64,000 nucleotides of DNA, from assembly GCA_934426825.1 (NCBI GenBank), contig CAKRYI010000011.1, positions 5,302-69,301 of the forward strand, given 5' to 3'. This document shows, piece by piece, positions 7,441-49,074 of the stretch. Below the pieces are notes generated by a model. The model worked only from the letters and a program-made list of their open reading frames with translations. It was not told the DNA's origin and ran no database searches. Numbering within the stretch: position 1 is the stretch's first letter; each line of letters starts with the position of its first letter. The translations under genes and the position numbers were made by a program. This DNA comes from an uncultured Acetatifactor sp. GTDB taxonomy: Bacteria > Bacillota > Clostridia > Lachnospirales > Lachnospiraceae.

Positions 7441-7516
7441 CATTTTATTGACTTTTTTTTCAAAAAGTATAATAATGTTAGGCAGATATATAATCTGAGA
7501 AAAGAGGGAAATACCG

Positions 7517-9943: not shown

Positions 9944-12591
9944 GACCGAAGAAATTAAGCCTGTGCGCATGGGGACCCTATCGCGACAGGGAGGAAGTAG
10001 ATTTTACAGCGTTTGAGGATAAGGGGATTTTTCTGATTACGGGAGCTACCGGTGCAGGAAAGACCACTATTTTTGATGCCATTACTTATGCGCTGTACGG
10101 CGCTTTGAGCGGGGATGAGAGAGACCGGGAGCGCAACAGCGTCCGCAGTGATTTTGCAAGTCCGGAGACGCCTACCTATGTGGAGCTCACCATGGAGCAT
10201 GGCGGAAAAATTTACCGGATACGGAGAAACCCGGAGTATCTGCGCCCCAGAAAGCGAAGCAGCAATCCGGCACAGTACACCAAAGAAAAGGAAAATGCTG
10301 TTTTGTATTATCCGGATGAGAGGGTGCTTGAGGGCGTAAGAGAAGTCAATGCGGCATTGCTGGAACTTTTGGGACTGGATTATCAGCAGTTTAAAAAGAT
10401 TTCCATGATTGCCCAGGGAGAATTTGCAAAGCTGTTGGTGGCGCCCCCGAAGGAGAAAACCAAAATTTTCCGGGAATTGTTTGGAACGGGAATTTATGAG
10501 CGTTTTACGCAGGTGCTGAGCGCCCGCGTGAGACAGCTCTATGGAAAAGTGACGGAGCAGAAAAGCAAGCTGGAGGAGGATGTCCGTCTGCTTGCCGTTG
10601 ACTTGGAAAAGGCGGATTGGAGCGAAGAAATCCGCGACAGATTCCGGGAGCTTGTGGCGGCGGAAAACTGGAACTATGCGGAGTTAGCGGAACATTTAAA
10701 CCGGATGGAAACAGAGGCAAAGCACAGGACGAAGGAGAATCAGAATGCTTTTGAGGAGGCAGACCAAAAAGGAAACCTGCTCACCGTCACACTAACCGAG
10801 AAAGCGCAGGACAACCGCAATTTAGAGGAATTGGACAAGGCAAAGGCGGCTCAGAGCAGCCTGAAAGAGAAACAGAAAATTTATAAAGAGAAGGAAGTTT
10901 TACTGAAACAGGCTCAGGATGCAGGCTTTGTGGAGGGTGCCGAGGAAAAGGTATTGCAGCTTGAGAAACAGTGCCAAGCCAATGTAGAGGAGAGAACACG
11001 TCTCGGCACGGAAATGCAAAAGCTGAGCGGGGAGCAGGAACAGTTGTCCGAAGTGGTAAGCCTTGCTGACCGCCTGAGGGAGCTGATAAACCATAAGAAA
11101 CAACTATCGGAGCAAAAAGAAGCTGCGGATAGGCTGCAGAAAGAACTTTCGGATAAAGAAAAGCAGCTTACTGTAAAACAGGCAGAGTATTTACAGCAGG
11201 AGGAAGCAAACAGGGAAGCTAAGGACGCTTATGAGGAGGCTGATTACCGGCGCAGATTAGCAGCAGTTGGACTGGCTGCACAGCTTTTAAAGGAAGGGGA
11301 ACCCTGTCCGGTCTGCGGTTCCACCGAGCATCCGGCACCGGCAAAGGTGGGGGACGATATTGTATCGGAAACAGAATTGAGGGCGTTAAAAGAAAATGCG
11401 CAAAGGCAGGATAAGCTGCTTAGGGAGCTGCATGAAAAGCTGGTGAGACAGACTGCCGAATGGGAAAACCAAAAAGAACTTTTGCACCGCCGGCAGGAAG
11501 AAATTGCGGCGGGAGAAGCAGTTTTGGCTCAGACAGACGATTTGTCTGACAAGAAATATCTGGAATTGCCTGCGCAGAAGGCACTGGAGGACATTGGAAA
11601 GAAGTGCGACCGTTTTGGAAGAATTGCGGGGCTGTTGCAGGAGAAACAGGCAAGGAAAAAGGAACTGCTTACACTGACACAAACGAAAGAGGCGGAGCTG
11701 GAGCAGGCAAAAGTGCAGATGGGCGAACTGCTAAAGGAGTACGGATTTGCCGACAAAGAAGCGTATCTGTGCGCAAAACGTTCTGCAAAGGAAAGAGAAC
11801 TGCTGTACCGGGAGATAGAAGACTATGGAAAGCAGGTTGCCGCAAACAATCAGCTTATCTCACATTTAGAGGAACTTACAAAGGGCAAACCCCGGACGGA
11901 TTTGGGGTTACTTAAGCGGGAGCAGGAGGAGAACAATGCGGTTCGGGAAAATGCCCTGAGAGCACACAGACAGTGGGAGCGCAATCTTTCCGATGTCAAA
12001 AAGACCGTACAGATGATGCGGGAAAAGCAGGAGATTATCGAAAAGAACAGCACCGAGTACGGTTATATGAAAGATTTGGAAAACATGGCAATCGGCAACA
12101 ATTCCAAGAAACTGGTATTTGAACAGTATGTTCTCGCCGGATATTTTGAGGAAATTTTGCGGGCGGCAAATATCAGGCTGCGGCGTATGACGGACGGCAG
12201 GTATGAGATGGAGAGGGTCAGCGAAGTGGGGGACGGCAGAGTAAAGGATAATCTGGAAATTCAGGTTATGGATTACTATACCGGAAAGTACCGCTCCGTC
12301 AGAACGTTGTCCGGCGGAGAGTCCTTTAAGGCGTCTTTAGCACTGGCGTTAGGACTCAGCGATGTGATTCAGTCCATGAACGGCGGCATCCGGGTGGACA
12401 CCCTCTTTGTGGATGAGGGCTTTGGTGCGCTGGATGAGGAAAGTCTCAATCAGGCGTGTGATGCGCTTATGGGACTGGTGGACACAAACCGGCTCATCGG
12501 CATTATCTCCCATGTGCAGGAACTGCGGGAGAGAATCGACAGACAGCTTGTGATTGAAAAAAGCAGCAGTGGAAGCACGATTCAACAATAA
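9940..12591 (+). CDS. sbcC: Exonuclease SbcC (Rad50-family ATPase)
   Basis: Walker A FLITGATGAGKTTIFDAITYALYG, a long coiled-coil, a central CPVCGS zinc-hook, and a C-terminal signature/Walker B (LSGGESFKASLALAL...LFVDEGFGALD). Confidence 0.92.
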   Translation: MRPKKLSLCAWGPYRDREEVDFTAFEDKGIFLITGATGAGKTTIFDAITYALYGALSGDERDRERNSVRSDFASPETPTYVELTMEHGGKIYRIRRNPEYLRPRKRSSNPAQYTKEKENAVLYYPDERVLEGVREVNAALLELLGLDYQQFKKISMIAQGEFAKLLVAPPKEKTKIFRELFGTGIYERFTQVLSARVRQLYGKVTEQKSKLEEDVRLLAVDLEKADWSEEIRDRFRELVAAENWNYAELAEHLNRMETEAKHRTKENQNAFEEADQKGNLLTVTLTEKAQDNRNLEELDKAKAAQSSLKEKQKIYKEKEVLLKQAQDAGFVEGAEEKVLQLEKQCQANVEERTRLGTEMQKLSGEQEQLSEVVSLADRLRELINHKKQLSEQKEAADRLQKELSDKEKQLTVKQAEYLQQEEANREAKDAYEEADYRRRLAAVGLAAQLLKEGEPCPVCGSTEHPAPAKVGDDIVSETELRALKENAQRQDKLLRELHEKLVRQTAEWENQKELLHRRQEEIAAGEAVLAQTDDLSDKKYLELPAQKALEDIGKKCDRFGRIAGLLQEKQARKKELLTLTQTKEAELEQAKVQMGELLKEYGFADKEAYLCAKRSAKERELLYREIEDYGKQVAANNQLISHLEELTKGKPRTDLGLLKREQEENNAVRENALRAHRQWERNLSDVKKTVQMMREKQEIIEKNSTEYGYMKDLENMAIGNNSKKLVFEQYVLAGYFEEILRAANIRLRRMTDGRYEMERVSEVGDGRVKDNLEIQVMDYYTGKYRSVRTLSGGESFKASLALALGLSDVIQSMNGGIRVDTLFVDEGFGALDEESLNQACDALMGLVDTNRLIGIISHVQELRERIDRQLVIEKSSSGSTIQQ

Positions 12592-12614
12592 ATGGAGACA
12601 GAGAGGAATCAGGA

Positions 12615-13679
12615 ATGAAACGATATAAGAAAATTCTGGCACTGGGACTTGCCGCACTATTGGCTGCGGCAGCTTTTACCTCCTGCGGAAAAGGCGGGAA
12701 TACCAAAGTGGTGTTTACCACGGGATTCGGGAAAAATGAGGTGTTCCGCATTGACAACGCATCTTGCAGCAGAGAGGAGATGATGGTATATCTCACCAAC
12801 ACCCAGAATCAGTACGAGAATGTATACGGTGCCGAGATATGGAATACCTCTTTGGACGGGGTGACGCTGGAAGAAAATGTGAAAGATACCATGCTGGCAA
12901 AAATTGCACAGATTAAGACCATGAATCTTCTGGCGGAGGAAAAAGAAATTACGCTGGATGAGACGGAGGAGGAAACGGTTGCCCATGCGGCGGAGGAATA
13001 TTTCCAGTCCTTAAATGAGACGGAGATAGAGCAGATGGGCGTTACGATGGATACCATCAAGCAGCTTTACAGGGAACACCTGATAGCGGACAAGGTGTAT
13101 CAGGAGATTATCCGTGATGTCAATCCGGAAATCAGTGATGATGAGGCGAGAACCATCACCGTGCAGCACATTCTGATTCGCACGGTAATGTCGGATGGAA
13201 ACGGAAAGCAGATTCCTTATTCGGACGAGGAAAAAAAGGCGGCATTTGCCAAGGCATGCGAGGTACGCAGTCTGGCAGTGGACGGGGAGCATGATTTTGC
13301 CGAACTTGCCGCAGAGTACAGCGATGACACCAATCTGACATACTCCTTCGGAAAGGGAGAGATGGACGCAACTTTTGAGCAGGCGGCATTTAGTCTGGGG
13401 ACGGACGAGATAAGCAATGTGGTGGAGAGCAAAAAAGGCTACCATATTATCAAATGTATCAGCACGTTCAACAGAGAGGAGACGGATGCCAACAAACTTC
13501 AAATCGTGGAGGAGAGGCGCAGGGAAGTGTTCGGGCAGGAGTATGACGCTTTTGTGGACACGCTGGCGCGGAAACTGAATCAGAAGGTATGGGATGAAAT
13601 CACGCTGATTCACGATGACAGGGTGACGACCTCCGGTTTTTTTGATGTATATGAAAAATATTTTCCCGCAAAATCCTGA
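12615..13679 (+). CDS. PrsA/SurA-like lipoprotein peptidyl-prolyl isomerase (PpiC-type)
   Basis: Lipoprotein signal MKRYKKILALGLAALLAAAAFTSCGK. The C-terminal half has PpiC parvulin motifs (ITVQHILI... KKGYHIIKC). Confidence 0.75.
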   Translation: MKRYKKILALGLAALLAAAAFTSCGKGGNTKVVFTTGFGKNEVFRIDNASCSREEMMVYLTNTQNQYENVYGAEIWNTSLDGVTLEENVKDTMLAKIAQIKTMNLLAEEKEITLDETEEETVAHAAEEYFQSLNETEIEQMGVTMDTIKQLYREHLIADKVYQEIIRDVNPEISDDEARTITVQHILIRTVMSDGNGKQIPYSDEEKKAAFAKACEVRSLAVDGEHDFAELAAEYSDDTNLTYSFGKGEMDATFEQAAFSLGTDEISNVVESKKGYHIIKCISTFNREETDANKLQIVEERRREVFGQEYDAFVDTLARKLNQKVWDEITLIHDDRVTTSGFFDVYEKYFPAKS

Positions 13680-14306: not shown

Positions 14307-14366
14307 AATGCAGTAAGGGAATCCGACATGCAGAAAAGGAATCTGAAGTTGAAAGGAGCGGCGCAT

Positions 14367-15272
14367 ATGAGTGGCAATCGCAAAAAGGATTGGGAAGAAA
14401 TGAAACAGGAATATGAACAGAGACATATGCCGGAACAAAAGGTGGAGCTTTTAAAGGACACCATAAACCGGGCGAAGCAGGACGGAAGAAAGAAAAGACG
14501 GGGAAGAGTTGTGCGGGGCATTGCCTCTGTGGCAGCAGTGGCGGTGATTTTTGTTGCCCTGCCCAACACGTCGGCACAGGTGGCGCACGCCATGAGCAGT
14601 ATTCCGGTTATCGGAAAACTGGTGGACGTGGTGACATTCCGCAATTATCAGTATAACAGTGAAAGAAACAATGCAGATGTGGAGGTGCCGGAACTGGTGG
14701 TAAAAGAGGATGAAACCTCCAAGCCGCAGGCACAGGAAAATCTAAAAAAAACGACGGAAGAAATCAATGCGGAAATTAAGCAGATTTCAGACAGTTTTAT
14801 AACGGAATTTGAGGAGAATATGCAAAATGAGGAGGGCTATCAGAATGTGACGATAAAGTCCGAGGTGATAGCTACCACAGAGAATTATTTCACCTTGAAA
14901 TTAATCTGTTTTCAGGCTGCCGGAAGCGGTGCAGAGTGGGATTATTATTACACCATTGACTTAAATACCGGAGAGAGGCTTGCGCTGAAAGATTTGTTTA
15001 CAGAGGGTGCGGACTATATTACGCCTGTCAGTGACGACATCAAGAGACAGATGAGAGAACAGATGGCGCAGGATGAAAATGTGATGTACTGGCTGGATGA
15101 CCCGGAGGTGCCGGAGTGGAATTTTCAGGCAATTACGGATGACACGGCTTTTTATGTGAATGCAGATGGCAATCTTGTGATTTTCTTTAACGAGGGAGAT
15201 GTGGGACCTATGAGTATGGGTGTGGTACAGTTTACCATCGCACCGGAGGCGATTCAGAATATCCGGAAATAA
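14367..15272 (+). CDS. Anti-sigma factor, RsiV-like (cytoplasmic N-terminus, one TM helix, extracellular DUF3298-like domain)
   Basis: Follows the sigma gene directly. Has a basic N-terminus, a single TM (VVRGIASVAAVAVIFVALP), and a C-terminal domain with the WDYYYTIDLNTGE...FYVNADGNLVIFFNEGDVGPMSMG pattern that I associate with DUF3298/RsiV. AAAGGAG SD before the ATG at 14367. Confidence 0.65.
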   Translation: MSGNRKKDWEEMKQEYEQRHMPEQKVELLKDTINRAKQDGRKKRRGRVVRGIASVAAVAVIFVALPNTSAQVAHAMSSIPVIGKLVDVVTFRNYQYNSERNNADVEVPELVVKEDETSKPQAQENLKKTTEEINAEIKQISDSFITEFEENMQNEEGYQNVTIKSEVIATTENYFTLKLICFQAAGSGAEWDYYYTIDLNTGERLALKDLFTEGADYITPVSDDIKRQMREQMAQDENVMYWLDDPEVPEWNFQAITDDTAFYVNADGNLVIFFNEGDVGPMSMGVVQFTIAPEAIQNIRK

Positions 15273-15837: not shown

Positions 15838-18800
15838 ATGCAAAATCAGACGATGAAACATCATCTTGGAAAACAGCAGAAAATGGAAAATAGAAACGGA
15901 AATGGAAGAAAGCGCACTGCAACGGGTGGTCTGCGCAGAGCGGGCAGATGGGCAGCGGCATTTTTGCTTGTGGGCTTCCTTGCAGGTGCCTCTTTCGGGG
16001 CACCGGGCATGGAAAGGGTAAACGCGGCGCAGACAATACAGACGCAGACAGCGGTGATGGAGCTGAGCAAACTGCCGCTCATAGCGGACAACGCCCAGCG
16101 CCTTGACTTTACGATCAATGCGGGCAATGTATCCAAGTACGACAATGCGGTTCTGACGGGCAGCTTCTCGGACGAGGACGGAAATATCGCGCGAAAGAGG
16201 ATCGTGATAGACGGTACGACCGTAAACCTGACAATCCGGGATGTGAACATCGACCGCAGCACATGGTACGCTACGACGGCGGCGGTTGAGCTGATAAACG
16301 GCGCAAAGCTGAATCTGACGCTGGAGGGGGACAATGTGCTCAAGGGCAGTATCGGAGGCGCCGGCATCGGCGTCGGGGAGGACTGCACCCTGACGATCAC
16401 CGGACAGAGCATGGGAACACTGACAGCGGTAGGCGGCAGTTATTACGGAGGCGCAGCGGGCATCGGCGCCAACGGAACAGGGGCTTATGCGGGTAAGCCG
16501 AGAGAGGTTATCCAGAAGTTCGGAACCATCATCATAGAGGGCGGTACAGTCAATGCAGAGGGCGGAACCTATTTCTATAGGGGCGTGCTGGAATCCTCGG
16601 GAGCCGGAATCGGCGGCTCCGGCTATGGATCCGAGGGAACCATTATCATCCGGGGCGGCGTTGTCAATACCGTCGGAGGAACCGGAGCAGCCGGAATCGG
16701 CGGCGGATGCGCCGGTCATGTGGATAAGATCGAGATTACCGGCGGTAAGGTGACTGCCACCGCCGTGGTAGATGGAACCAATTCCACAATTCAGGGAGCG
16801 GCGATCGGCAGTGGATACAATGGAAACTCTATGGAGGCGATGCCCTGCGGGGAAATTTCCATTATGGGCGGGGAAATCACTGCAGACGGAAATATCGGCT
16901 ATGGAACAGGAGACAACGAATATAATGGCGGCAGTATCCGCATTGGCGGGGAGGCGAAGCTGGATGTCACGGGAACGATAAGCCTCAAAGACCCTGAGGG
17001 AGTGGCGTACATGCTGCAGCTTACGGTATATGATGTAAGACTGGTGGGAAGTCAGAATATTGCAGGAACCGCAGAATTGAAAAATCAGAAAAGGAAAACA
17101 ATCGGCGAGGTTTCCGGGGCTTCCGCTGCGATCGAGTTAGAATATTTTGCCGAGAGCGAACTGACCGGAAAGCAGGACGTCAAGGTAACCATTGGGGAAT
17201 ACGAGTATCAGACACAGGTGGATTTTCAGGCGGGAAAGACCGACTATGCCGTGCAGATCGGACAGCCGCTGTGCGACACGCGGCTGCGGCTTGACATCGA
17301 CTGGACTTGGGGGACGAAAGCGCGGAAGGTCACTTCCCTCAGCGTCACGAAGGCGGGCAAGGAGTTTGACCGTCAGGAATATTATGTGGCAGAGAAGACG
17401 GAAGGCACCGAATCGAAGGACTATCTTTATCTTCAGATGTACCTTCCGGAGGGAGAGCAGTATGACATCACTGCTGCCATTGAAGGTGTAAATGGTGGAG
17501 AGCCTGTGACCGTGAGCGGGCAGACGGTAAAAGGCGGTGCAGAAAATGTGATCTATGTTCTGCCCCTCAATGTGGAACTGATCGATGCGGACAATACGGA
17601 TAATCTAGCGGAGGTCACAGTCTCCGGCAAAAAGGATATAACGGTACATTATCTGGTAAGCAAAACTGACTTCACGGATGAGGAGATTCAGGCAAAGGCG
17701 GAGATAGGGGAGACCGAAAGCCTTAAATTGACCGGTGGAACACAGACCTTTTCCGTGGCAGCGTCGGACGTAGAGACGGATGTGACCTGCTATGTCATTG
17801 CCAAAGGCAGTAATGGTTATTCAAAGGTTTACAGACAGAGCTTCCATTCGGGGGAATTGGTTGCGGTGGAAGCCATGCTGTATAAGCGCGGCGAGACGGA
17901 AGGAATTGCCTATGCCACATTGGATGCCGCAGTCGCGGCGGCACAGAAACCGGAGAATAAGGGCTGTACGGTTCGTCTTCAGGAGAATATGATCCACAGC
18001 GGCACCCTGACCGTGAACGATGGCAGCTTTACGCTGGACGTTAACGGCAAGCAGTTGACGGCGGAGGACCGCACAACGCTCCTGCAGCTGGACGGCGGAA
18101 GCCTCACCCTGAAGGACAGTAAAGGAACCGGCAGCATGGTGGGCGGAAAAAGGGTTGGGAGCACCGTTGCGCATATAATCGTCGCCAACGGCGGCACACT
18201 GACCATACAGAACGGTAACTATTGGGTAAACGCAAACGGAAGCGGAGCGGACGCAGATAAAGGTGCCGTTATTTACACAGACGAGGGGGCGAATCCGGTT
18301 GTAAAAATCAAGGATGGCAGCTTTGGAAGGAAGACCCAATGTTCAAAATATGGTTTTTATATGCAGAGTGGTATACTGGAGGTGGAAGGCGGCACATTTG
18401 TAGAAGTGTGGAATTATGCAATTAAGGATACCGAGGCAACGATCAGCGGGGGCGAGTTCCAAAGCAATCTTATTCTGAGTCAGGACAATGCGAAGCTGAG
18501 GGGAGGCAGCTTCGCCACGCTCATGGTGGCGGATGAAGCGGGTAATATTGCATCAGACGGAGACTGTAGCCAGCTGCTGGATGGAACATATGGAGAGAAG
18601 TATCAGTATAAGAAGAACGGTAACTTGGTAGAGGCGAAAGATGCAAAAGGTAATAGTTTGTTTAATGTCGAGGTCATCTGCGTGCTGCCGGAGCTGGATA
18701 GAAGCGCCAAAATCACGATTGTTAACGGAGGCACAAGGCAGCCCATGGTCGGGGATACCCTGCAGTGTACATTTGAGCCGTATCCAGTCGGAAAGGAATG

Positions 18801-21800
18801 GGATGTGATAGATACACATACCTACAACTGGTATCGTGTGGACGGCGAGGAGGCGACGCTTGTGCACACAGGTTCAGGAAGATGGAACTGCACCTACGAC
18901 GTGACGGCGGACGACATCGGAAAGAAGCTCTATTGTGAGGTGGTGTTCGAAAAGTACCAGAGCGTACGCACAGAACCGACGAAAACAGTGACAAAGTACA
19001 GACTGAACGCCATCAATACCCTGTTCAAAAACACGGTCACCAAGTATTATACGGGAGAGCCGGTTACACTGACGGCGGAAGACTTAGCTGACGCAGGTGT
19101 GGGAGGCAACAATAATCTGAATCTGCAGCTGGACACCGACTTTATTGTTCAAAGGTACGAGAACAATACAGAAGTCGGCAAGGCGACGGTGTGGGTTGAG
19201 GGAATCGGTGATTATATAGGTTCCACGCAAAATAGATTCGACATCGTGTATAAGCCCATGAATGTCACTCCCACCGTAAAAGGGCTGGGAGCGGACGGCT
19301 GGACCAATTGTGCCGAACTGGTGGCACCGGAGGGCTATACTATCAGCTTTTCCCAGAAGGATGGCTACGCGGGCAGTATTTTCTATGACAAGGAGAGTGG
19401 CATGGACGGTGTGCAGCCTACCTATTATCTGCGGGAGACTGCAACCGGTTATATTTCCGATGCAAAGCAGCTGGCGGATGTGATCAAAGTTGAGAAGGAG
19501 GCGCCTGCCTTTACCGGAGAATCCGACGGCATTTCCTTCGGCCTGAGCAACTGGAAGGAACGGGAGAAGCCTATTTCCTTTGAAATAAAGACGAAATCTG
19601 CGCAGATGGCGCTTCATGCCACGGACGCACTTTCCGGCATACAGACCTACTATTACTACGCAGACCGGGTACAGGACACTGCCAATTATCAGGTGCTGAC
19701 CGATTACCAGCTGCAGGAACTGGAGCGGAGCTTCAAGGCTGCTGAAAACGGCAGATTTACGTTGGATACGGACGGCAGCTATGTTGTGTACGCCTATGCG
19801 GTGGATAAGGCGGGCAACCGGAGCACTGTAATCTGCTCGGGCGGCATTGTGATTGACAACACCGCACCGGGACTGACGGCAGCCGTGCCTGCGGAGAAGA
19901 TTAAGTCCAATGAGGCGGATGTGGAATTTACAATGGATGAGGCGGGAACGCTTTCTTATTATTATTGCGACAGCAATTCCGGCTTTGGGATGAATGAGAC
20001 GCCGACTTTTGAGGAACTGGAGAACCATAAGGGTGCTTTTGACGAGCATTTCAGATACGGTACCGTTTCCGTTTCCCTTGGTCAGGTGGGGCAGAAGCAG
20101 AACCTTTCTTTGGAAAATTTAGACATTCATACAGAGTATGCGGTCTATCTGGTGACAGAGGATGAAATGGGTAATGTCAGTCAGGTGAAACGGCTGAATT
20201 TCAGAACGAAGAAGTTGCTTCCTGTTTTGAAGGAGGCTCCGACGCTTACCGGAGAGTACGGTACGAAAGTAGCTGACCTGCAGATTACCGGAGGCAGCGT
20301 CTTACAGCCGGACAAAGAGACTGCATTGGAGGGAACATGGTCCCTTGTAACCGGCAATACGGGACTTGACCTTGTGCCGCAGGTAGGAGAGGAAAAAACC
20401 TATCGCGTGATTTATAAGATAACAAGTGCAGGAGGGCTGAATGACGCTTACGAAGATGTGGAATGTGACGCAAAGGCAGTAATCACACCGAAGGACATCA
20501 GTTCCTTTACGGTGGAGGACATTGCGGACTGCGAGTACAGTGGTGCAGAACTGACTCCGGAGCCTGTTGTAAAGGGGACGGACCGCTACGGCGCGGAACA
20601 GACATTGACAAAGGGTGTGGACTATCAGGTTTCCTACCGGGATAATACGCATGCGGGAACGGCGACGATTGTTATCACCGGTCAGGGCAATTATCAGGGA
20701 GCACTCGAGAAGGAGTTTCAGATTACGCAGGCAAGGAATGAATTTACCTCGAAGCTGACCTGTGACAGTTATACCTACGACAAGGAAGCGGTACCCGCAC
20801 CGAACGTGACGGCAAAGTATGGAACGGTGATTTATGAGTATGCAAAGGTAGCGGACAACGGAAATCCGCCGGTAGAAGACGATTACACGACTGAGCTTCC
20901 GGTAAAGGCGGGAGAATGGTGTGTCAGGGCTTATGTGCCGGAGACAGAGGATTATACCGGAATGCTCAGCGGAGGCGTGCCATTTACAATCCGTAAGGCG
21001 GAATACCGGAACGGAATACAGTACGGGGAATATGTGTCTTACAGAGACTGGACGGGAGAAACAGTGACGGTTCCGGGAGAAAAGTTTTTCCCGAATCCGC
21101 CCGAAGATTGCGGCAAGATTACCTACAGTGTGAAGGTGGATGACCTCTCTAATATTTTAGAAGGAACGGCTGTGGTAGATGAGAACGGAACCCTGTCGTA
21201 CCGGTTGAGGCAGGTTACGGCAAGTGAGATAGAAAACGGGAAAAAACAGGCATGGATCACTTACAAAATCTCCACGGAAAATTATGAGATTGTCGGAGAT
21301 TCCGGCTGGAGGATTGAAGTTGTCGATTGGCTGGAGTTTCAGGGAAGGGATGAGGTGCAAATTGATGGAAGCAATGAGCTGACTTACGGTCAGAAGCTGT
21401 CCGCACTGACCTTAAATAGCAGAAATAGCGTCTTCCATGACGTGCACATGAACGAGGTAGAGGGCAGCTTTGAATGGCTGGAGCCGGAGAGCGTGCCTGC
21501 CGTCGGAACGACATCGGCGACCTATTACCTCCGTCATTCTTTAAAGGAAAGCTACAAGACATATCAGAACGAGATTGCGATTACCGTTGTTCCGGCAGCG
21601 CCGAGGGTGACGGCACCCGTGTTGGGGAACGGCGTGACAATTACCTATGACCCCGCAAAGACGTTGGGCGACGTTTTTCCGATGAACGGCTATGCAGCGG
21701 CAGGCAGTATGGCAGAAAGTATCTGGACGGGCGGCAGCGCCGTATGGACGGTTGGAGACAATGAGGTGACTGTGGACGGAAGCTGGAGCTGGCAGAACCC

Positions 21801-23544
21801 GGACATTGTACCGACGGTGGATAGCGAGGGCTATGTGGCTGTCTTTACGCCGACAGACAATGTAAATTATAAGCCGGCAACGGCAGTTGTAACGCTTGCA
21901 CTCGGAAAGGCAAAGCCTGAAATTACGGAGAAGCCGACGGCGGCAGCAATCACTTACGGGCAGACGCTTGGGGAGAGTCTGCTGAGCGGAGGTGCAGGAA
22001 ACGTAGCAGGAACCTTCGCATGGAAGGATGGGAACGTGAAACCCACTGTTTCTGATGGTGACGCAACGCCGTACGAGGTAGTATTTACCTCAGAGGACAG
22101 TAACTGGGGAACGGCGGAGACGACAGTGACCCTTAAAGTCAACAAGGCGCCCTGTCCGTCCAATATGCCGCAGACGCAAATGGCGCCCGCGCATAGATTC
22201 AAGACGGTCGGAGAGGTGGAGCTGCCGCAGGGCTGGTACTGGGTGGAAACCGATGCTCTGCAGGAGCTTGCCGATGAGACGGCGGTGACTGCAACGGCAG
22301 TTTACAACGGAAGCGACAAGGGCAATTATGAGACCGAGAGCGTTGAAATTGTGCTGATAAGGAGTAAATGTGAGCATACGTCCACGGCGGTGAACGGAAG
22401 GAAGGATGCGACCTGTCAGGCGGAAGGTTATACCGGAGACACGGTATGTGCGGAATGTGGTGTCACGCTGTCAGTGGGAACGACGATTCCCAAGACGGCG
22501 CACAGCTATACAGGTGTGGTGACGAAGGCTGCGACAACGGAGGAAGAGGGCGTCATGACCTATACCTGTGGCATTTGCATGCACAGCTACACCGAGGCAA
22601 TCGCAAAGCTGACACCTGCCCCCGCACCGGCACCGACGCCCGCACCCACGACAGAGCCTGCAGCGGCACCTGCAGCGTCAACACCTGCGGCAGAGCCTGA
22701 AACAAAACCCGCACCGGCGAATGACCGGACGACAAAATCCACAGAAGCTCCCAAGGCAGAGACTGAGACAGCACCGGCACCGACGACGAAGTCCACAGCG
22801 GAGTCCGCGTCTGAGGAAACACCGGATGCAGGAATGCCGTACCTTAAGAAAGATACCGGAAAGAACGGCTGGGAACTGATTAAGGAACAGTTGGAGAATG
22901 TGCCGGACAGAGATGTTGTTGACGTGGAAATGAACGGTGCAACCACCGTGCCGGGAGATGTTTTTGACACCATCAAAGGCAGAGATTTGACAGTTGTTTT
23001 CCATATGGGAGACGGTATCAGCTGGACGGTGAACGGTAAGGATGTCACGGCAGATAAGGGTAAGGATATTGATTTCGGGGTAGTGTTTGGCAAAGAAGCC
23101 GGAAAGACGATTCCGGTGGAGGTCATCAATAATGTTACCGGAGAGAGATATTCCATCAACCTGACGCTTGCGTATGACGGCGAGTTTGGCTTTCAGGCGA
23201 CGCTTACCGTGAATATGGATAAAAAGAATGCCGGACTTTTTGCAAACCTGTTCTATTATAACGAACAGTCCGGCGAACTGGAATTTATCTGTGCCGGTGA
23301 GATAGACAGTAAAGGAGAGGTCGGACTGACCTTCACCCATGCTTCGGACTACACGATTATCGTGGATGTGCAGTCGATGGAGCCGAATGCGATGGACGAT
23401 GCGGCAAATCCGGCGGTTTCGCAGGAGGTAAGTGCAGCAGGAAGTTTCCATCCCGTTGGGGCACTCCTTATCGCACTGGCGGTGATCGCTCTCGGCGCAG
23501 GAGGATTCCTGCTTGTGAGAGCGAAAAAGGGAGAGGAAGAATAA
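15838..23544 (+). CDS. Giant cell-surface protein (2568 aa): signal peptide, Gly-rich beta-helix-like repeats, many Ig-like/beta-sandwich repeats, 6-Cys module, Pro/Thr-rich linker, conserved about 190-aa C-terminal module, C-terminal TM anchor
   Basis: N-terminal signal (RWAAAFLLVGFLAGASFGAPG). Repeated G-G-x-x-AGIGG motifs between aa 150 and 350. Long T/V/Y-rich repeat region. Cys module CEHTSTAVNGRKDATCQAEGYTGDTVCAECG...TYTCGICMHSYTE. PAPAPAPTPAPT... linker. The C-terminal module and hydrophobic tail (ALLIALAVIALGAGGFLLVRAKKGEEE) are shared with the downstream paralogue. No LPXTG. SD AAGAGGAAGTGG. Confidence 0.85.
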   Translation: MQNQTMKHHLGKQQKMENRNGNGRKRTATGGLRRAGRWAAAFLLVGFLAGASFGAPGMERVNAAQTIQTQTAVMELSKLPLIADNAQRLDFTINAGNVSKYDNAVLTGSFSDEDGNIARKRIVIDGTTVNLTIRDVNIDRSTWYATTAAVELINGAKLNLTLEGDNVLKGSIGGAGIGVGEDCTLTITGQSMGTLTAVGGSYYGGAAGIGANGTGAYAGKPREVIQKFGTIIIEGGTVNAEGGTYFYRGVLESSGAGIGGSGYGSEGTIIIRGGVVNTVGGTGAAGIGGGCAGHVDKIEITGGKVTATAVVDGTNSTIQGAAIGSGYNGNSMEAMPCGEISIMGGEITADGNIGYGTGDNEYNGGSIRIGGEAKLDVTGTISLKDPEGVAYMLQLTVYDVRLVGSQNIAGTAELKNQKRKTIGEVSGASAAIELEYFAESELTGKQDVKVTIGEYEYQTQVDFQAGKTDYAVQIGQPLCDTRLRLDIDWTWGTKARKVTSLSVTKAGKEFDRQEYYVAEKTEGTESKDYLYLQMYLPEGEQYDITAAIEGVNGGEPVTVSGQTVKGGAENVIYVLPLNVELIDADNTDNLAEVTVSGKKDITVHYLVSKTDFTDEEIQAKAEIGETESLKLTGGTQTFSVAASDVETDVTCYVIAKGSNGYSKVYRQSFHSGELVAVEAMLYKRGETEGIAYATLDAAVAAAQKPENKGCTVRLQENMIHSGTLTVNDGSFTLDVNGKQLTAEDRTTLLQLDGGSLTLKDSKGTGSMVGGKRVGSTVAHIIVANGGTLTIQNGNYWVNANGSGADADKGAVIYTDEGANPVVKIKDGSFGRKTQCSKYGFYMQSGILEVEGGTFVEVWNYAIKDTEATISGGEFQSNLILSQDNAKLRGGSFATLMVADEAGNIASDGDCSQLLDGTYGEKYQYKKNGNLVEAKDAKGNSLFNVEVICVLPELDRSAKITIVNGGTRQPMVGDTLQCTFEPYPVGKEWDVIDTHTYNWYRVDGEEATLVHTGSGRWNCTYDVTADDIGKKLYCEVVFEKYQSVRTEPTKTVTKYRLNAINTLFKNTVTKYYTGEPVTLTAEDLADAGVGGNNNLNLQLDTDFIVQRYENNTEVGKATVWVEGIGDYIGSTQNRFDIVYKPMNVTPTVKGLGADGWTNCAELVAPEGYTISFSQKDGYAGSIFYDKESGMDGVQPTYYLRETATGYISDAKQLADVIKVEKEAPAFTGESDGISFGLSNWKEREKPISFEIKTKSAQMALHATDALSGIQTYYYYADRVQDTANYQVLTDYQLQELERSFKAAENGRFTLDTDGSYVVYAYAVDKAGNRSTVICSGGIVIDNTAPGLTAAVPAEKIKSNEADVEFTMDEAGTLSYYYCDSNSGFGMNETPTFEELENHKGAFDEHFRYGTVSVSLGQVGQKQNLSLENLDIHTEYAVYLVTEDEMGNVSQVKRLNFRTKKLLPVLKEAPTLTGEYGTKVADLQITGGSVLQPDKETALEGTWSLVTGNTGLDLVPQVGEEKTYRVIYKITSAGGLNDAYEDVECDAKAVITPKDISSFTVEDIADCEYSGAELTPEPVVKGTDRYGAEQTLTKGVDYQVSYRDNTHAGTATIVITGQGNYQGALEKEFQITQARNEFTSKLTCDSYTYDKEAVPAPNVTAKYGTVIYEYAKVADNGNPPVEDDYTTELPVKAGEWCVRAYVPETEDYTGMLSGGVPFTIRKAEYRNGIQYGEYVSYRDWTGETVTVPGEKFFPNPPEDCGKITYSVKVDDLSNILEGTAVVDENGTLSYRLRQVTASEIENGKKQAWITYKISTENYEIVGDSGWRIEVVDWLEFQGRDEVQIDGSNELTYGQKLSALTLNSRNSVFHDVHMNEVEGSFEWLEPESVPAVGTTSATYYLRHSLKESYKTYQNEIAITVVPAAPRVTAPVLGNGVTITYDPAKTLGDVFPMNGYAAAGSMAESIWTGGSAVWTVGDNEVTVDGSWSWQNPDIVPTVDSEGYVAVFTPTDNVNYKPATAVVTLALGKAKPEITEKPTAAAITYGQTLGESLLSGGAGNVAGTFAWKDGNVKPTVSDGDATPYEVVFTSEDSNWGTAETTVTLKVNKAPCPSNMPQTQMAPAHRFKTVGEVELPQGWYWVETDALQELADETAVTATAVYNGSDKGNYETESVEIVLIRSKCEHTSTAVNGRKDATCQAEGYTGDTVCAECGVTLSVGTTIPKTAHSYTGVVTKAATTEEEGVMTYTCGICMHSYTEAIAKLTPAPAPAPTPAPTTEPAAAPAASTPAAEPETKPAPANDRTTKSTEAPKAETETAPAPTTKSTAESASEETPDAGMPYLKKDTGKNGWELIKEQLENVPDRDVVDVEMNGATTVPGDVFDTIKGRDLTVVFHMGDGISWTVNGKDVTADKGKDIDFGVVFGKEAGKTIPVEVINNVTGERYSINLTLAYDGEFGFQATLTVNMDKKNAGLFANLFYYNEQSGELEFICAGEIDSKGEVGLTFTHASDYTIIVDVQSMEPNAMDDAANPAVSQEVSAAGSFHPVGALLIALAVIALGAGGFLLVRAKKGEEE

Positions 23545-23547
23545 ATC

Positions 23548-24861
23548 TTATTTTTGTATCACAATATCAATCGTGAAACAATCGGCGGTGTGGGAGAATT
23601 TAGCCATGCCGCCGTATTTTTCTGCCACGGTGGCAATGGAGGTCAGACCGATGCCGGAACCGCCCTTATGTGTGGAGAGGTAGGCATCGTCCCTTTGCTT
23701 TACAACACCGTCAAAGCTGTTTTCAGAGATAATGTAAAGACAACGGTCATGCTGCGGCTGAATTGTTAAGTTGTGATATTTTTTCTCCGGCGGAAGGGTC
23801 TGGCAGCCATAGTATACATTTTCCAGCAGATTGCCGAGAAGCCCGCAGAGTTCGGTGTCCGTAATTTGAAGGTTGTTCGGAAGACTGATTTTCCAGCTAC
23901 GGCGGATTCCGTCGGCGTCCATCCTTGCCGCATAGTAATTTAACAGGGCATTGACCGGAATGTTCAGGCAATAGGTCGTTACGGATTCCGGAAGAGAAGA
24001 AATGTATTCCGACAGATGGCTTGTCAGCGCATCATAGTCTTTATCCTGAGCCATCTGGGCAATGCTTAAGAGCTGCTGGCGGAAATCATGGCGCTGTCTG
24101 GAGGATTCTGTAATGTAGCGCTGCTGGGCAAGGTAATGGCTCTCCTGCATCTCGAAAAAGCGGATGCGTTCCCTGTCCTGAGAACTCCGGCGGAGTTCCA
24201 CGGTCATCATATAGAAAATCAGATAAATGATATTGAACAGGAAGAATACAAGAGCTATGTAAATAAGGTAAATCGGGTAGACACGGTTGACGTACATGGT
24301 TTCGTATTTATGCGGCATCATCATAATGTTGAGCACAATAAAAATCAGCGGAACCGGCAGGGAAACAGCCCACACGCGGGGGGATTCCGTGAAATCAATG
24401 AAATCTCCGAGAAAACGGTAGAAGAACCACGCATATAACAGCAAAAACAGGACACTGATACCCAGTTGGACGCTCCCGACAAGGGGACAATGGGACAGGG
24501 AGCCTTCTAACGGGTGTACGCGGCAGTCGATGGCAAGGGTGATGAGCGTGGGAAAGGACATCAGAGCCATGACAAGCAGAAAGACGGATGCAGTTGTGCA
24601 GATATGTGTCTTAAGCACCTTTTGATAACAGGCAAAAAGGACTGCCACCAACGGCAGAAGGACATAGTTGGTTGGAAGATCGGCAAGGGTGACGATAGCA
24701 GCGCAGAGCGGTATCAGGACGGCAAACAGACCGCTCGCCACAAGGCAGAGCTTCCGGATGGGGAGGCGCAGCTGGTTCCGCACGGGAAGCAGACACAGCG
24801 CAGCAGCCGGAAACAGTATCATAAATGAAAAAATTTCAGATAAATAATTCATGGGATTCAA
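23548..24861 (-). CDS. Sensor histidine kinase, LytTR-associated (AgrC/GHKL-type) with polytopic N-terminus
   Basis: 437 aa with about 6-7 N-terminal TM helices. The C-terminal HATPase with GGSGIGLTSIATVAEKYGG is typical of HPK10-type kinases paired with LytTR regulators. It overlaps the upstream regulator gene by 4 nt. Confidence 0.8.
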   Translation of the reverse strand: MNPMNYLSEIFSFMILFPAAALCLLPVRNQLRLPIRKLCLVASGLFAVLIPLCAAIVTLADLPTNYVLLPLVAVLFACYQKVLKTHICTTASVFLLVMALMSFPTLITLAIDCRVHPLEGSLSHCPLVGSVQLGISVLFLLLYAWFFYRFLGDFIDFTESPRVWAVSLPVPLIFIVLNIMMMPHKYETMYVNRVYPIYLIYIALVFFLFNIIYLIFYMMTVELRRSSQDRERIRFFEMQESHYLAQQRYITESSRQRHDFRQQLLSIAQMAQDKDYDALTSHLSEYISSLPESVTTYCLNIPVNALLNYYAARMDADGIRRSWKISLPNNLQITDTELCGLLGNLLENVYYGCQTLPPEKKYHNLTIQPQHDRCLYIISENSFDGVVKQRDDAYLSTHKGGSGIGLTSIATVAEKYGGMAKFSHTADCFTIDIVIQK

Positions 24862-25597
24862 TTCCTTTCTGACATGGAGTTATGGAATTTGGTAAAGTTG
24901 TAATTGTGCCATGTCTGGGTCAGCTGGCGCAGTTTTCGCTGTGTCACCGGAACATTCAGACCGTTTTGCAAAAGACAGGCATTTCCCTGAAAGCCGGTGA
25001 TATGGTCCATATTCACAAGGATTCCGCGGCTGACAAGCAGAAAGCGTCCGTCCTCCGTAAGCGGCTTTGTAAAGCCGGAAAATGCGGAGTATACGGTGTA
25101 TTCCCTGCCGGAAATACACTGCACGAGTGTGGAATGTCCGGAGGCGGATAAACAGGCAATCTCGCTGTAGAAGAGCCGGATGTCCAGACCGTTTGAGGAA
25201 AAGGACAGGTAATCCTCCGGCTTTGGCAGAAGCGCAAGGGAATCCGTCAGACAGGTAAAAAATTTATTCTTTTCCAGTGGTTTTTCAATGTAATCGAAAG
25301 CATGGACGGAAAATGCCTGCCCCATATGCTCACCGCTGGAGGTGAGAAAAATCAGCAGGGAACGGCTGTCGGATTCCCGCATTTTCTTGGCGGTGTCGAT
25401 TCCGCTCATGCCGCCCATGTAAATATCCATAAACACAATGTCATAAGTATAGGGAACAAACGCGGAGAGAAATGACTCGCCGCTCTCAAACATATCTACT
25501 TCAAATTCCGTGTGCATTTCCTCGGCGAAGGAGGAAAACAGTCTGCCGGCGGACTCTCTCTCCACCGCAGAATCATCCACCAGTGCAAATCGCATCA
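24858..25597 (-). CDS. LytTR-family response regulator (REC + LytTR DNA-binding domain)
   Basis: MRFALVDDSAVER...DIVFMDIYMGGMSGID (REC with phospho-Asp context) and a C-terminal LytTR domain (…DIRLFYSEIACLSASGHSTLVQCISGREYTVY…LLVSRGILVNMDHI…). The ATG at 25597 has AGGAG 7 nt upstream. The longer ORF-track start at 25727 lacks an SD. Confidence 0.85.
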
Positions 25598-25693
25598 GAT
25601 TCAACGCTCCTCTTCTGTATTTATACATAGTATAGCATAAATGGGAAGTGGGGACATAAATTTTTTGCGGGAAGCGGAAACAGTCATTTGTTA

Positions 25694-25722
25694 TTCGTGA
25701 CGAAAGTTGTCGTTTCGTGCAA
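25694..25722. promoter_or_regulatory. Direct repeat TTCGTGA-N13-TTCGTGC (20-bp period), a candidate LytTR regulator binding site, with a TATAAAAT -10-like box about 27 bp downstream
   Basis: Two near-identical heptamers at 25694 and 25714 sit in the divergent intergenic region between the LytTR regulator gene and the surface-protein paralogue. LytTR/AgrA-type sites are paired direct repeats with about a 21-bp period. Confidence 0.4.
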
Positions 25723-25834
25723 GTCACCTTGCGCAGAGAGTCAAACCTATATAAAATTAGAAAAAGTGTAGTTATTTATAACCGAGATATTAGATGAAAG
25801 CAGGCATAAAGAGTATGAAGAAGTGGAACAAAGA

Positions 25835-27558
25835 ATGAAAAAAAATAATGGCGGTAACGCTGGCGGCGCTGATTGCCGGCAGTACGGTGGAACCGTCGGC
25901 ATTGGCGGCGGCAGCGGCGGGTCAGAAGCAGGAAGTGACGCTGACGGCAGTTGATACACCGGATGCGGCGGTAACGGGGAGCGCGGACGGGAAGGATTCT
26001 GTGAGCGGTAACTCTGTGACAGCCGGGGACAGTGCACTTGCCGGGGAAAATGGAATAGCGACGCTGGCTGAGGAGAGCGGTTCCACGGAAGATGTGGTCA
26101 GTCTGACCATAGGTGAGACCACCACAAACTATACGTCTCTGTCAGTAGCAGTGGCGGCGCTGCCAACAGATTCCGACGCAACACTGACGCTGCTGGGGGA
26201 TTGTCCGGCAGATACCTATATACTTGGAGACAAGGTAACAGGCACGGTAACGCTGGATCTGGCGGGGCATGCATTGACAGTGCCGGACGATAACAATATT
26301 ATGTTAAGCAGTGATAGTTTTATTGTGATGTCTTCACAAAATGTCGGTTACAAGGTCTGAGTGCAGTCATCCCCAGACGGTAGTAAGGAATGCACAAGAG
26401 GCAACCTGTACCGAAGCCGGCTATACCGGAGACACCTACTGCACAGAGTGTAACCAAATTACCGTGAACGGCACGGTAATCCCCGCCAAGGGACACAGCT
26501 ACACGTCAGTGATTACAAAACAGCCGACGACCGCAGAGGAAGGCATCCGAACCTACACCTGCGGAGGCTGCGGACACAGTTACACGGAACCTGTGGAAAA
26601 ACTGAACGACAGCGGTTCGGGTAGTACAGATACTGGAAATAAAGACGCGGGAAATGCGGATAGCGGAAATAAAGACGCAGGAAGCGCAGGTGCCGGAAAC
26701 AAAGACACGGGAAGCACAAACACAGAAAGCACAGAACCGGGAAACAAAAATACGGCAAGCACAGATACCAACACCACAGACGCAGGAAACGGCAGCCGCA
26801 GCGCAGCTCCATTCCTCAAGGGAGAGAACGGCAAAGAAGGCTGGGACGTCATCTGTGAGGATGTGAAGGCGGCTTCGGCGGGAGAAGAGATTACCGTGGA
26901 TATGAACGGCACTACTGTGGCACCCGGCAACCTGTTTGAACTGATTCACGGAGAAAATATTACTGTTGTGTTTGATATGGGTAACGGCATTGCATGGAGT
27001 GTGAACGGAAAAGATGTCACCGACATAAAAGGTGATATTGATTTCGGCATTACATTCGGAACAGAAGCAGGGAAAAACATTCCGGTAGATGTGATTAACA
27101 GTATCACAGGCGAGCATACATCGATGAATCTGACGTTAGCATATAACGGCGAGTTTGGATTTACGGCAGCACTGACAGTCAATCTGGAAGAAGCAAATGC
27201 CGGATACTATGCAAATCTGTTTTATTACAATCCGGATAACAGCAGCTTGGAGTTTGTATGTGCCGGACAGATTGGAAAAGACGGTAATGTAAATCTCACA
27301 TTTACGCATGCTTCCGATTACACGATAGTAATTGCAGAAATTATAATGGATGAAAAGAATATCGACAGTATTCAAAAAACTGACGATAAGGAACTGTCTG
27401 AACAGGATGCAGAACCGGCTTCTCAGGATTCAAGCGCCGGGTCAGCCAAAGCGGATGATTCCGCGTGGAGAAGTTTTTGGATGATAATGCTTGGTTCGAT
27501 AGTAGTTGTTGTAGGAGTGGGTATGTTCTTTATTAACAAAAAGAAGAAATCCGAGTAG
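25835..27558 (+). pseudogene. Paralogue of the giant surface protein (about 575 aa if repaired), apparently disrupted by two +1 frameshifts in A-runs. The intact ORFs are 25848..26360 and 26341..27558.
   Basis: With A7 instead of the observed A8 at 25838-25845, the ATG at 25835 gives MKKIMAVTLAALIAGSTVEPSALAAAAAGQ, a textbook signal peptide. As sequenced, the ATG at 25835 frame stops after 39 codons, and the ORF from 25848 has no SD and no charged n-region. The second ORF begins SECSHPQTVVRNAQEATCTEAGYTGDTYCTECN, which is homologous to the Cys module of the giant protein. The frames would join (…FIVMSSQ|MSVTRSEC…) if the A4 at 26337-26340 were A3. The C-terminal module and TM tail are homologous to the giant protein's. 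Confidence 0.5.
26635..26790 (+). repeat. Imperfect 18-bp tandem repeats encoding a GNKDAG/S-T low-complexity linker in the paralogue
   Basis: ggaaataaagacgcgggaaatgcggatagcggaaataaagacgcaggaagcgcaggtgccggaaacaaagacacggga... encodes TDTGNKDAGNADSGNKDAGSAGAGNKDTGSTNT... Confidence 0.6.
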
Positions 27559-48940: not shown

Positions 48941-49074
48941 CTGATTTTCCCAAAGCGGGAAAGGGCATATTCTGAAAAAGGGATTGATTTTTTTTGTCAA
49001 ATCTGTTTATCTATTTAGTGGAATGTTTTTATATTCAGATACAGCGCGTGGTGTAGCGCAGAAATGAGGAGAAT

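Follow-up and report, generated by a model that had tools for sequence, protein, structure and literature searches.

A probable recent and fixed pseudogene of a large surface protein, carrying a nonsense codon and an internal deletion, in an uncultured Acetatifactor lineage

Repeats of Neisseria and Haemophilus belong to the contingency loci. In Campylobacter such loci carry homopolymeric polyG tracts within the reading frame, and tracts of at least 7 bases inside frames work as ON/OFF switches, for example in Campylobacter jejuni (PMC4965091). Transcriptional slippage and the "saviour" correction of indels are furthermore known to occur at runs of A (PMC1088944, PMC5009743). Finally, lineage-associated decay of surface and adhesin genes has been described for the autotransporter genes of Campylobacter (PMC7168839).

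Here we compare with these systems the region 25815-27558 of a 64,000-nt stretch of DNA from an uncultured Acetatifactor sp. (contig CAKRYI010000011.1), referred to below as the window. This region very probably represents a recent, fixed pseudogene with a nonsense mutation at codon 8 and an out-of-frame internal deletion of about 3.6 kb. Like the Campylobacter autotransporter pseudogenes, it has an intact syntenic counterpart in relatives and carries disabling, lineage-specific lesions that are fixed in a clonal lineage, while differing lesions occur among lineages. Unlike the autotransporters, the family concerned here is an uncharacterised one of Lachnospiraceae without assignment in Pfam, NCBIfam or the PDB, and is known here from sequence alone. 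With contingency loci the region shares an 8-base homopolymer at the very 5′ end of a surface protein gene, where a change of one base alters the frame, but the present tract is not conserved, is invariant among assemblies, was made by substitutions around a nonsense codon and is followed by a gene that a deletion has irreversibly broken. As in slippage rescue at poly(A)/poly(T) runs (PMC1088944, PMC5009743), a one-base change of the mRNA at an A run would alter the frame; however, the run has 8 and not at least 9 bases, a stop codon is present instead of an indel, and conservation is missing. The process proposed here is gene decay of an ordinary kind.

A sequence-only reading of the window had described the locus as a paralogue broken by two +1 A insertions, one in an A8 run directly behind an ATG and one in an A4 run, and had offered phase variation, pseudogene formation or sequencing error as explanations. 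The ATG and the A8 run directly behind it were confirmed in the sequence, while the A4 run is located one base to the right of the position given for it (26338-26341 and not 26337-26340). The last A of this run is the A of the ORF2 start codon. The frames of ORF1 and ORF2 differ by one base and the two ORFs overlap by 20 nt. Indeed, if one A is dropped from each run, a continuous ORF of 573 aa is obtained, which starts with MKKIMAVTLAALIAGSTVEPSALAAAAAG. The term paralogue is justified for the C-terminal piece, since ORF2 is 43% identical to the end of the 2568-aa protein encoded upstream (Table 1), but not for ORF1, which gave no significant match to this protein. Eight-base A/T homopolymers are scarce in the 64-kb window, which contains two A8 and two T8 runs. 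The other A8 run (14744-14751) lies in frame within an intact ORF (14328-15272), and the T8 runs (7453-7460 and 48988-48995) are located outside all checked long ORFs (≥250 aa).

Table 1 Features of the region, with positions in the window
Feature	Position	Strand	Remarks
Intact 2568-aa paralogue	15838..23544	+	Residues 2171-2566 are 43% identical to ORF2
GHKL histidine kinase, HATPase_c_5	23548..24861	-	Pfam; intact, synteny anchor
LytTR response regulator	24858..25727	-	Pfam; intact, divergent from the probable pseudogene, synteny anchor
Ancestral start ATG	25815-25817	+	Opens seven sense codons (MKKWNKE) ahead of a premature stop, TGA 25836-25838
Out-of-frame ATG noticed first	25835-25837	+	Three-frame translation, alignment A3
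A8 run	25838-25845	+	Exactly eight A, flanked by G and T
ORF1	25848-26360	+	170 aa
Retained N-terminal block	25848..26347	+	About codons 12-180; hydrophobic core of the signal peptide and about 145 mature residues
A4 run	26338-26341	+	CAA AAT in the frame of ORF1
ORF2	26341-27558	+	405 aa
Deletion junction	26347..26348	+	...CACAAAATGTCGG / TTACAAGGTCTGAGTGC (slash: junction)
Retained C-terminal block	26348..27558	+	Begins near codon 1383 in L015 and 1459 in L014 and includes the stop; aligned to L013-L015 by tblastn and blastn
Cys-rich module	~26368-26610	+	ORF2; residues 10-90, pLDDT 81-89 in the AlphaFold model
Low-complexity linker	~26614-26802	+	ORF2; disordered stretch 92-154 in the AlphaFold model
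Beta-rich domain	~26803-27360	+	ORF2; residues 155-340, pLDDT 67-93 in the AlphaFold model
C-terminal membrane helix	~27460-27549	+	ORF2; helix 374-403 in the AlphaFold model

By looking up contigs and scanning species-representative genomes, we obtained four orthologous loci, which originate from a Logan assembly (L013), the Lachnospiraceae MAG HGM12151 (L014), an uncultured Acetatifactor MAG (L015) and Lachnospiraceae UBA5895 (L016). Two of them harbor an intact single ORF at this locus (1861 aa in L014, 1798 aa in L015), and the deduced proteins span from MKKQTR(G/R)WKRIMAVALAVLIA... to a C-terminal hydrophobic anchor. The histidine kinase and the LytTR regulator have counterparts at the matching position in L013, L014 and L016 with amino acid identities of 82-89%, and for the shared upstream set (orthologue of the 2568-aa paralogue, kinase and regulator) the identity amounts to 79-89%. 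The same three relatives show a tandem arrangement of giant surface protein, kinase, LytTR regulator, second giant protein, second kinase and second regulator. In the window the second kinase/regulator pair is missing and CstA directly follows the remnant. For the LytTR regulator on the minus strand, the mechanically derived ORF comprises 289 aa from a GTG, and gene callers predicted 245 or 256 aa on identical contigs. Its true start is probably internal, so that the intergenic region in front of the pseudogene would be longer than it appears.

A DNA alignment of the window with the four orthologues (A3) contains no gap across the start region. The window reads ATG(25815) AAG AAG TGG AAC AAA GAA TGA AAA AAA ATA ATG GCG and the orthologue DNA ATG AAG AAG CAG ACC AGA GGG TGG AAA AGA ATC ATG GCA. 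Codon 8 is TGG (Trp) in 4/4 orthologues and TGA in the window, both in this gapless alignment and in the pairwise one (A1). On the protein level, MKKWNKE-TGA-KKIMAVTL of the window stands against MKKQTRGWKRIMAVAL in all four orthologues, whose N-termini follow the pattern MKKQTR(G/R)WKRIMAVAL. According to the gapless alignment, the ATG at 25815 is the ancestral start; the reading frame has been kept throughout, and a TGG at codon 8 has become TGA. The A8 run can be attributed to two G>A substitutions, which converted TGG AAA AGA A to TGA AAA AAA A with no base gained or lost. At the corresponding site the orthologues read TGGAAAAGAA (TGGAAAAGAATC in all four), and thus lack the tract. The ATG at 25835 owes its existence to the A of the codon GAA in front of the TGA stop. 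The ideal signal peptide that had been seen after removal of one A is a coincidence, since the codons for KKIM are already in frame just past the stop. A reading of TGA as Trp was considered and ruled out, as TGA is an ordinary stop here and terminates 6 of the 32 long ORFs in the window.

At the site of the A4 run the orthologues show CGA GAT (L016), CAA GCT (L013, L015) or AAA GAT (L014), again without an indel. In L016 the sequence CAC GAG ATG TCG G / GAAACTG corresponds to CAC AAA ATG TCG G / TTACAAG in the window (slash: position of the junction). Since the alignment has no gaps, A4 also arose by substitutions, and the ATG of ORF2 is an old out-of-frame ATG. Insertion of an A at either run is thus contradicted by the alignments to the four orthologous loci, which pass through both runs without gaps. 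Against each orthologue the window instead splits into two aligned blocks, one ending at 26347 and the next starting at 26348 or 26350, and this junction lies 7 bases beyond the A4 run. By blastn, window positions 25402-26347 align to L013 (5617-6562), L014 (952-1891) and L015 (79-737) at 74-76% identity, and by tblastn the N-terminal block matches orthologue residues 1-180. In the register of L014 and L015, both the last base of the left block and the first base of the right one occupy codon position 2, which leaves one surplus base. The net missing sequence, calculated from the orthologue stretch that separates the two blocks after subtraction of the window bases 26348-26349, amounts to 3605 nt relative to L014 and 3608 nt relative to L015, both 2 mod 3. 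A deletion of 3n+2 nt thus produces the +1 offset between the ORFs, and no other event is needed. No microhomology was visible at the deletion junction, and the final four codons and the stop of ORF1 are read across the scar. The polarity of the event as a deletion rests on orthologues of about 74% nucleotide identity and, for the right side, on a sister lineage of 97% identity.

Taken together, the ancestral gene would have comprised about 1,800 codons and encoded a large surface protein with an N-terminal signal peptide, a long extracellular part bearing Ig-like domains, the Cys-rich module and the beta-rich domain, and a C-terminal membrane anchor. It would have been located downstream of the divergent histidine kinase/LytTR pair, where the gene is still intact in related Lachnospiraceae. 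One lesion is the change of TGG to TGA at 25836-25838, which together with the adjacent change of AGA to AAA created the A8 run and the out-of-frame ATG as incidental products. The other is the deletion of about 3.6 kb (3n+2 nt), which fused codon ~180 out of frame to codon ~1383 (L015) or ~1459 (L014). ORF1 and ORF2 as called would be what is left open of this gene to the left and right of the scar. A loss of function of the locus appears likely from the sequence, because ORF1 lacks the basic part of the signal peptide and ORF2 has neither a signal peptide nor a Shine-Dalgarno sequence. Of the three explanations offered earlier, the pseudogene is upheld by the syntenic intact orthologues, but with a stop codon and a deletion as lesions and not with inserted A residues. 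The two pieces are still free of stops and thus the decay would be recent; in ORF2, 3.7% of the possible point substitutions would create a stop. We suggest annotating 25815-27558 as one pseudogene rather than as two hypothetical proteins.

The reproducibility of the sequence was examined by an exact-protein look-up with ORF2, which matched 14 contigs, and ten of these were retrieved (L001-L010). They were assembled independently from short reads in three studies (Hadza, MERR22, ERZ27287xxx). The look-up is biased toward the A4 site as it is based on ORF2, while it is unbiased for the A8 site. The ten contigs are 99.8-100% identical to the window, gap-free over 2.5-9 kb, and have the same neighbouring genes. 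A8 was found in 9/9 contigs that cover the site and A4 in 10/10. The sequence-only reading had itself named orthologues with this two-ORF arrangement, together with uniform reads, as grounds against its proposal, and the arrangement of a 170-aa and a 405-aa ORF is indeed shared by all contigs of the same lineage. Neither a collection of 5.8 billion protein clusters nor the 90% clusters around ORF1 and ORF2 contained a fused or in-frame allele. The ORF1 cluster consists of 170-aa forms only, and the ORF2 cluster comprises forms of 405, 467, 476 and 218 aa. A search with the repaired protein revealed no protein that spans both halves, the best match (P0001) covering only the C-terminal 71%. In the JGI metagenome collection, neither a scan with ORF1 peptides nor a DNA pattern allowing any tract length retrieved anything from the window lineage.

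No family reached the threshold when the repaired fusion, ORF2 and the intact orthologues were searched by sequence against Pfam, NCBIfam and the PDB; matches were confined to sub-threshold ones of the Ig_3, Pentapeptide_2 and OmpL47 type. The AlphaFold model of ORF2 (mean pLDDT 67) was compared to the PDB by Foldseek and yielded nothing at E ≤ 0.001 and only weak beta-sandwich or CBM-like resemblances.

A point against a pseudogene is that both frames are still open and long (170 and 405 codons). Reinitiation at the ATG at 25848, ten bases past the stop and thus behind a leader of 7 codons, could yield a 170-aa product, and ORF1 and/or ORF2 (from the ATG at 26341) might accordingly be new, shorter proteins. 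A near-consensus sigma-70-like promoter element (TTGACA-17-TATTAT, 26274-26302, 11/12 matches) is situated within ORF1 and precedes the ATG of ORF2 by 40 nt. Furthermore, dN/dS of ORF2 against the sister lineage is below 1 (0.18-0.27, compared to 0.03 for CstA and 0.07 for MatE), a value of low power, since it is derived from 10-43 substitutions, of which many fall into a recombinant segment and only 10 outside it. Nevertheless, the ORF1 product from the ATG at 25848 has no basic residue before the hydrophobic core, while the orthologues have 5-6, and ORF2 has no signal peptide although it encodes extracellular-type modules and a C-terminal anchor. No Shine-Dalgarno sequence was found upstream of either ATG. 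The promoter candidate was rejected as probably fortuitous: its words are ancestral coding sequence and occur in the coding sequence of L016 as well, and the region contains two promoter-like sites, where 3.1 would be expected by chance. In addition, the lineage is nearly clonal, so that conservation is uninformative, and the sister lineage retains a differently truncated piece. We therefore regard functional short proteins as an unlikely outcome of the two lesions.

The slipped-strand switch considered in the sequence-only reading would toggle a surface protein between A8 (OFF) and A7 (ON), with the A4 run acting likewise. Loss of one A would indeed place MKKIMAVTL..., with two basic residues ahead of the hydrophobic core, behind a start codon, and the run reaches the length at which tracts act as switches in C. 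jejuni (PMC4965091). However, the tract is not conserved among the orthologues, as it arose by two substitutions in a collinear frame, and its length is constant in contigs from different samples. Neither a 174-aa nor a 573-aa allele exists in the protein clusters, and the second break is the scar of a 3.6-kb deletion and not a repeat, the A4 run being far below the length for useful slip rates. Even in the presumed ON state, A7 would yield only a 174-aa fragment without anchor, and slippage cannot repair the deletion. As the tract neither varies in length nor is conserved, and an ON state does not exist, phase variation is very improbable. That dropping one homopolymer base closes a broken frame says nothing in favour of slippage, and here the orthologues reveal a stop and a scar. 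It is likewise very improbable that slippage from A8 to A7 in a minority of cells or transcripts gives a secreted 174-aa N-terminal fragment (MKKIMAVTL...), by which the dead gene would at low frequency supply a new small protein for export.

A programmed recoding would have to combine slippage or sliding on the A8 run with a +1 frameshift in the overlap 26341-26360 for synthesis of the full product. Although A runs are known slippage and indel-correction sites, the present run is shorter than the 9A/9T used in the search for functional slippage (PMC1088944). Neither site is conserved in the orthologues, which are single ORFs (L014, L015) or broken elsewhere (L013, L016), and both sites are lineage-specific lesions. 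Moreover, the overlap AAT GTC GGT TAC AAG GTC TGA offers no prfB-like slippery codon before the stop and no upstream Shine-Dalgarno-like stimulator, and an evolved signal would hardly be expected at a deletion scar of such recent origin. We attach hardly any probability to this mechanism. A homopolymer sequencing or assembly error that masks an intact 573-aa ORF, suggested by the fact that both breaks are mended by taking an A from a run, is excluded at the assembly level, given the same gap-free sequence in ten independently assembled contigs from three studies, the control A8 run within an intact ORF (14744-14751) and the orthologue alignments without a surplus base at either run.

For the probable pseudogene, further comparison is provided by a sister lineage (L011, L012, L017-L020; at least 15 contigs) with 97.4% nucleotide identity over 11 kb. 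Its homology to the window starts exactly at 26348, with none upstream, and the sequence reads GTGAAGATT / ACAAGGTCTGAGTGC across this position (slash: position of the junction). The sister lineage is truncated differently: only a C-terminal piece of 467 or 476 aa is left, which starts about 80 codons further upstream than the C-terminal block of the window. In front of this piece (L017, 1-1965), about 1.6 kb of DNA with a GC content of 0.28-0.38 contains a gene for PfkB as well as an ORF of 84 aa that weakly matches Mrr_cat. The 5′ truncation of the sister lineage is thus adjacent to low-GC foreign DNA with a fragment of an Mrr-type nuclease. Most contigs of the sister lineage break within 0.4-1.8 kb upstream.

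The two remaining orthologues are also disrupted. In L013, a 1328-aa and a 451-aa ORF are separated by one missing C (ATGCCGGCG compared to ATGCCCGGCG in the sister lineage) at about 9985-10004, and in the L016 orthologue (10001-12740) residues 36-93, 366-691 and all from 1347 onward are missing. Part of the breakage in L013 and L016 could be due to assembly errors in MAG or Logan contigs. Intact copies were found in two of the six lineages examined, and decay of the second tandem giant surface protein gene is apparently independent in several Lachnospiraceae lineages. This recurrent loss hints that the protein may be dispensable or selected against in the gut.

Within the remnant, 33 of 252 nt (13%) deviate from the sister lineage in the segment 26350-26601, which corresponds to the Cys-rich module, compared to 10 of 954 nt (1%) in the rest. 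This divergence resembles a patch left by recombination or gene conversion. As its donor, the paralogue in the window was rejected, being only about 43% identical on the protein level. The mosaic Cys module also raises the very improbable alternative that the C-terminal remnant itself serves as a silent donor cassette for recombination.
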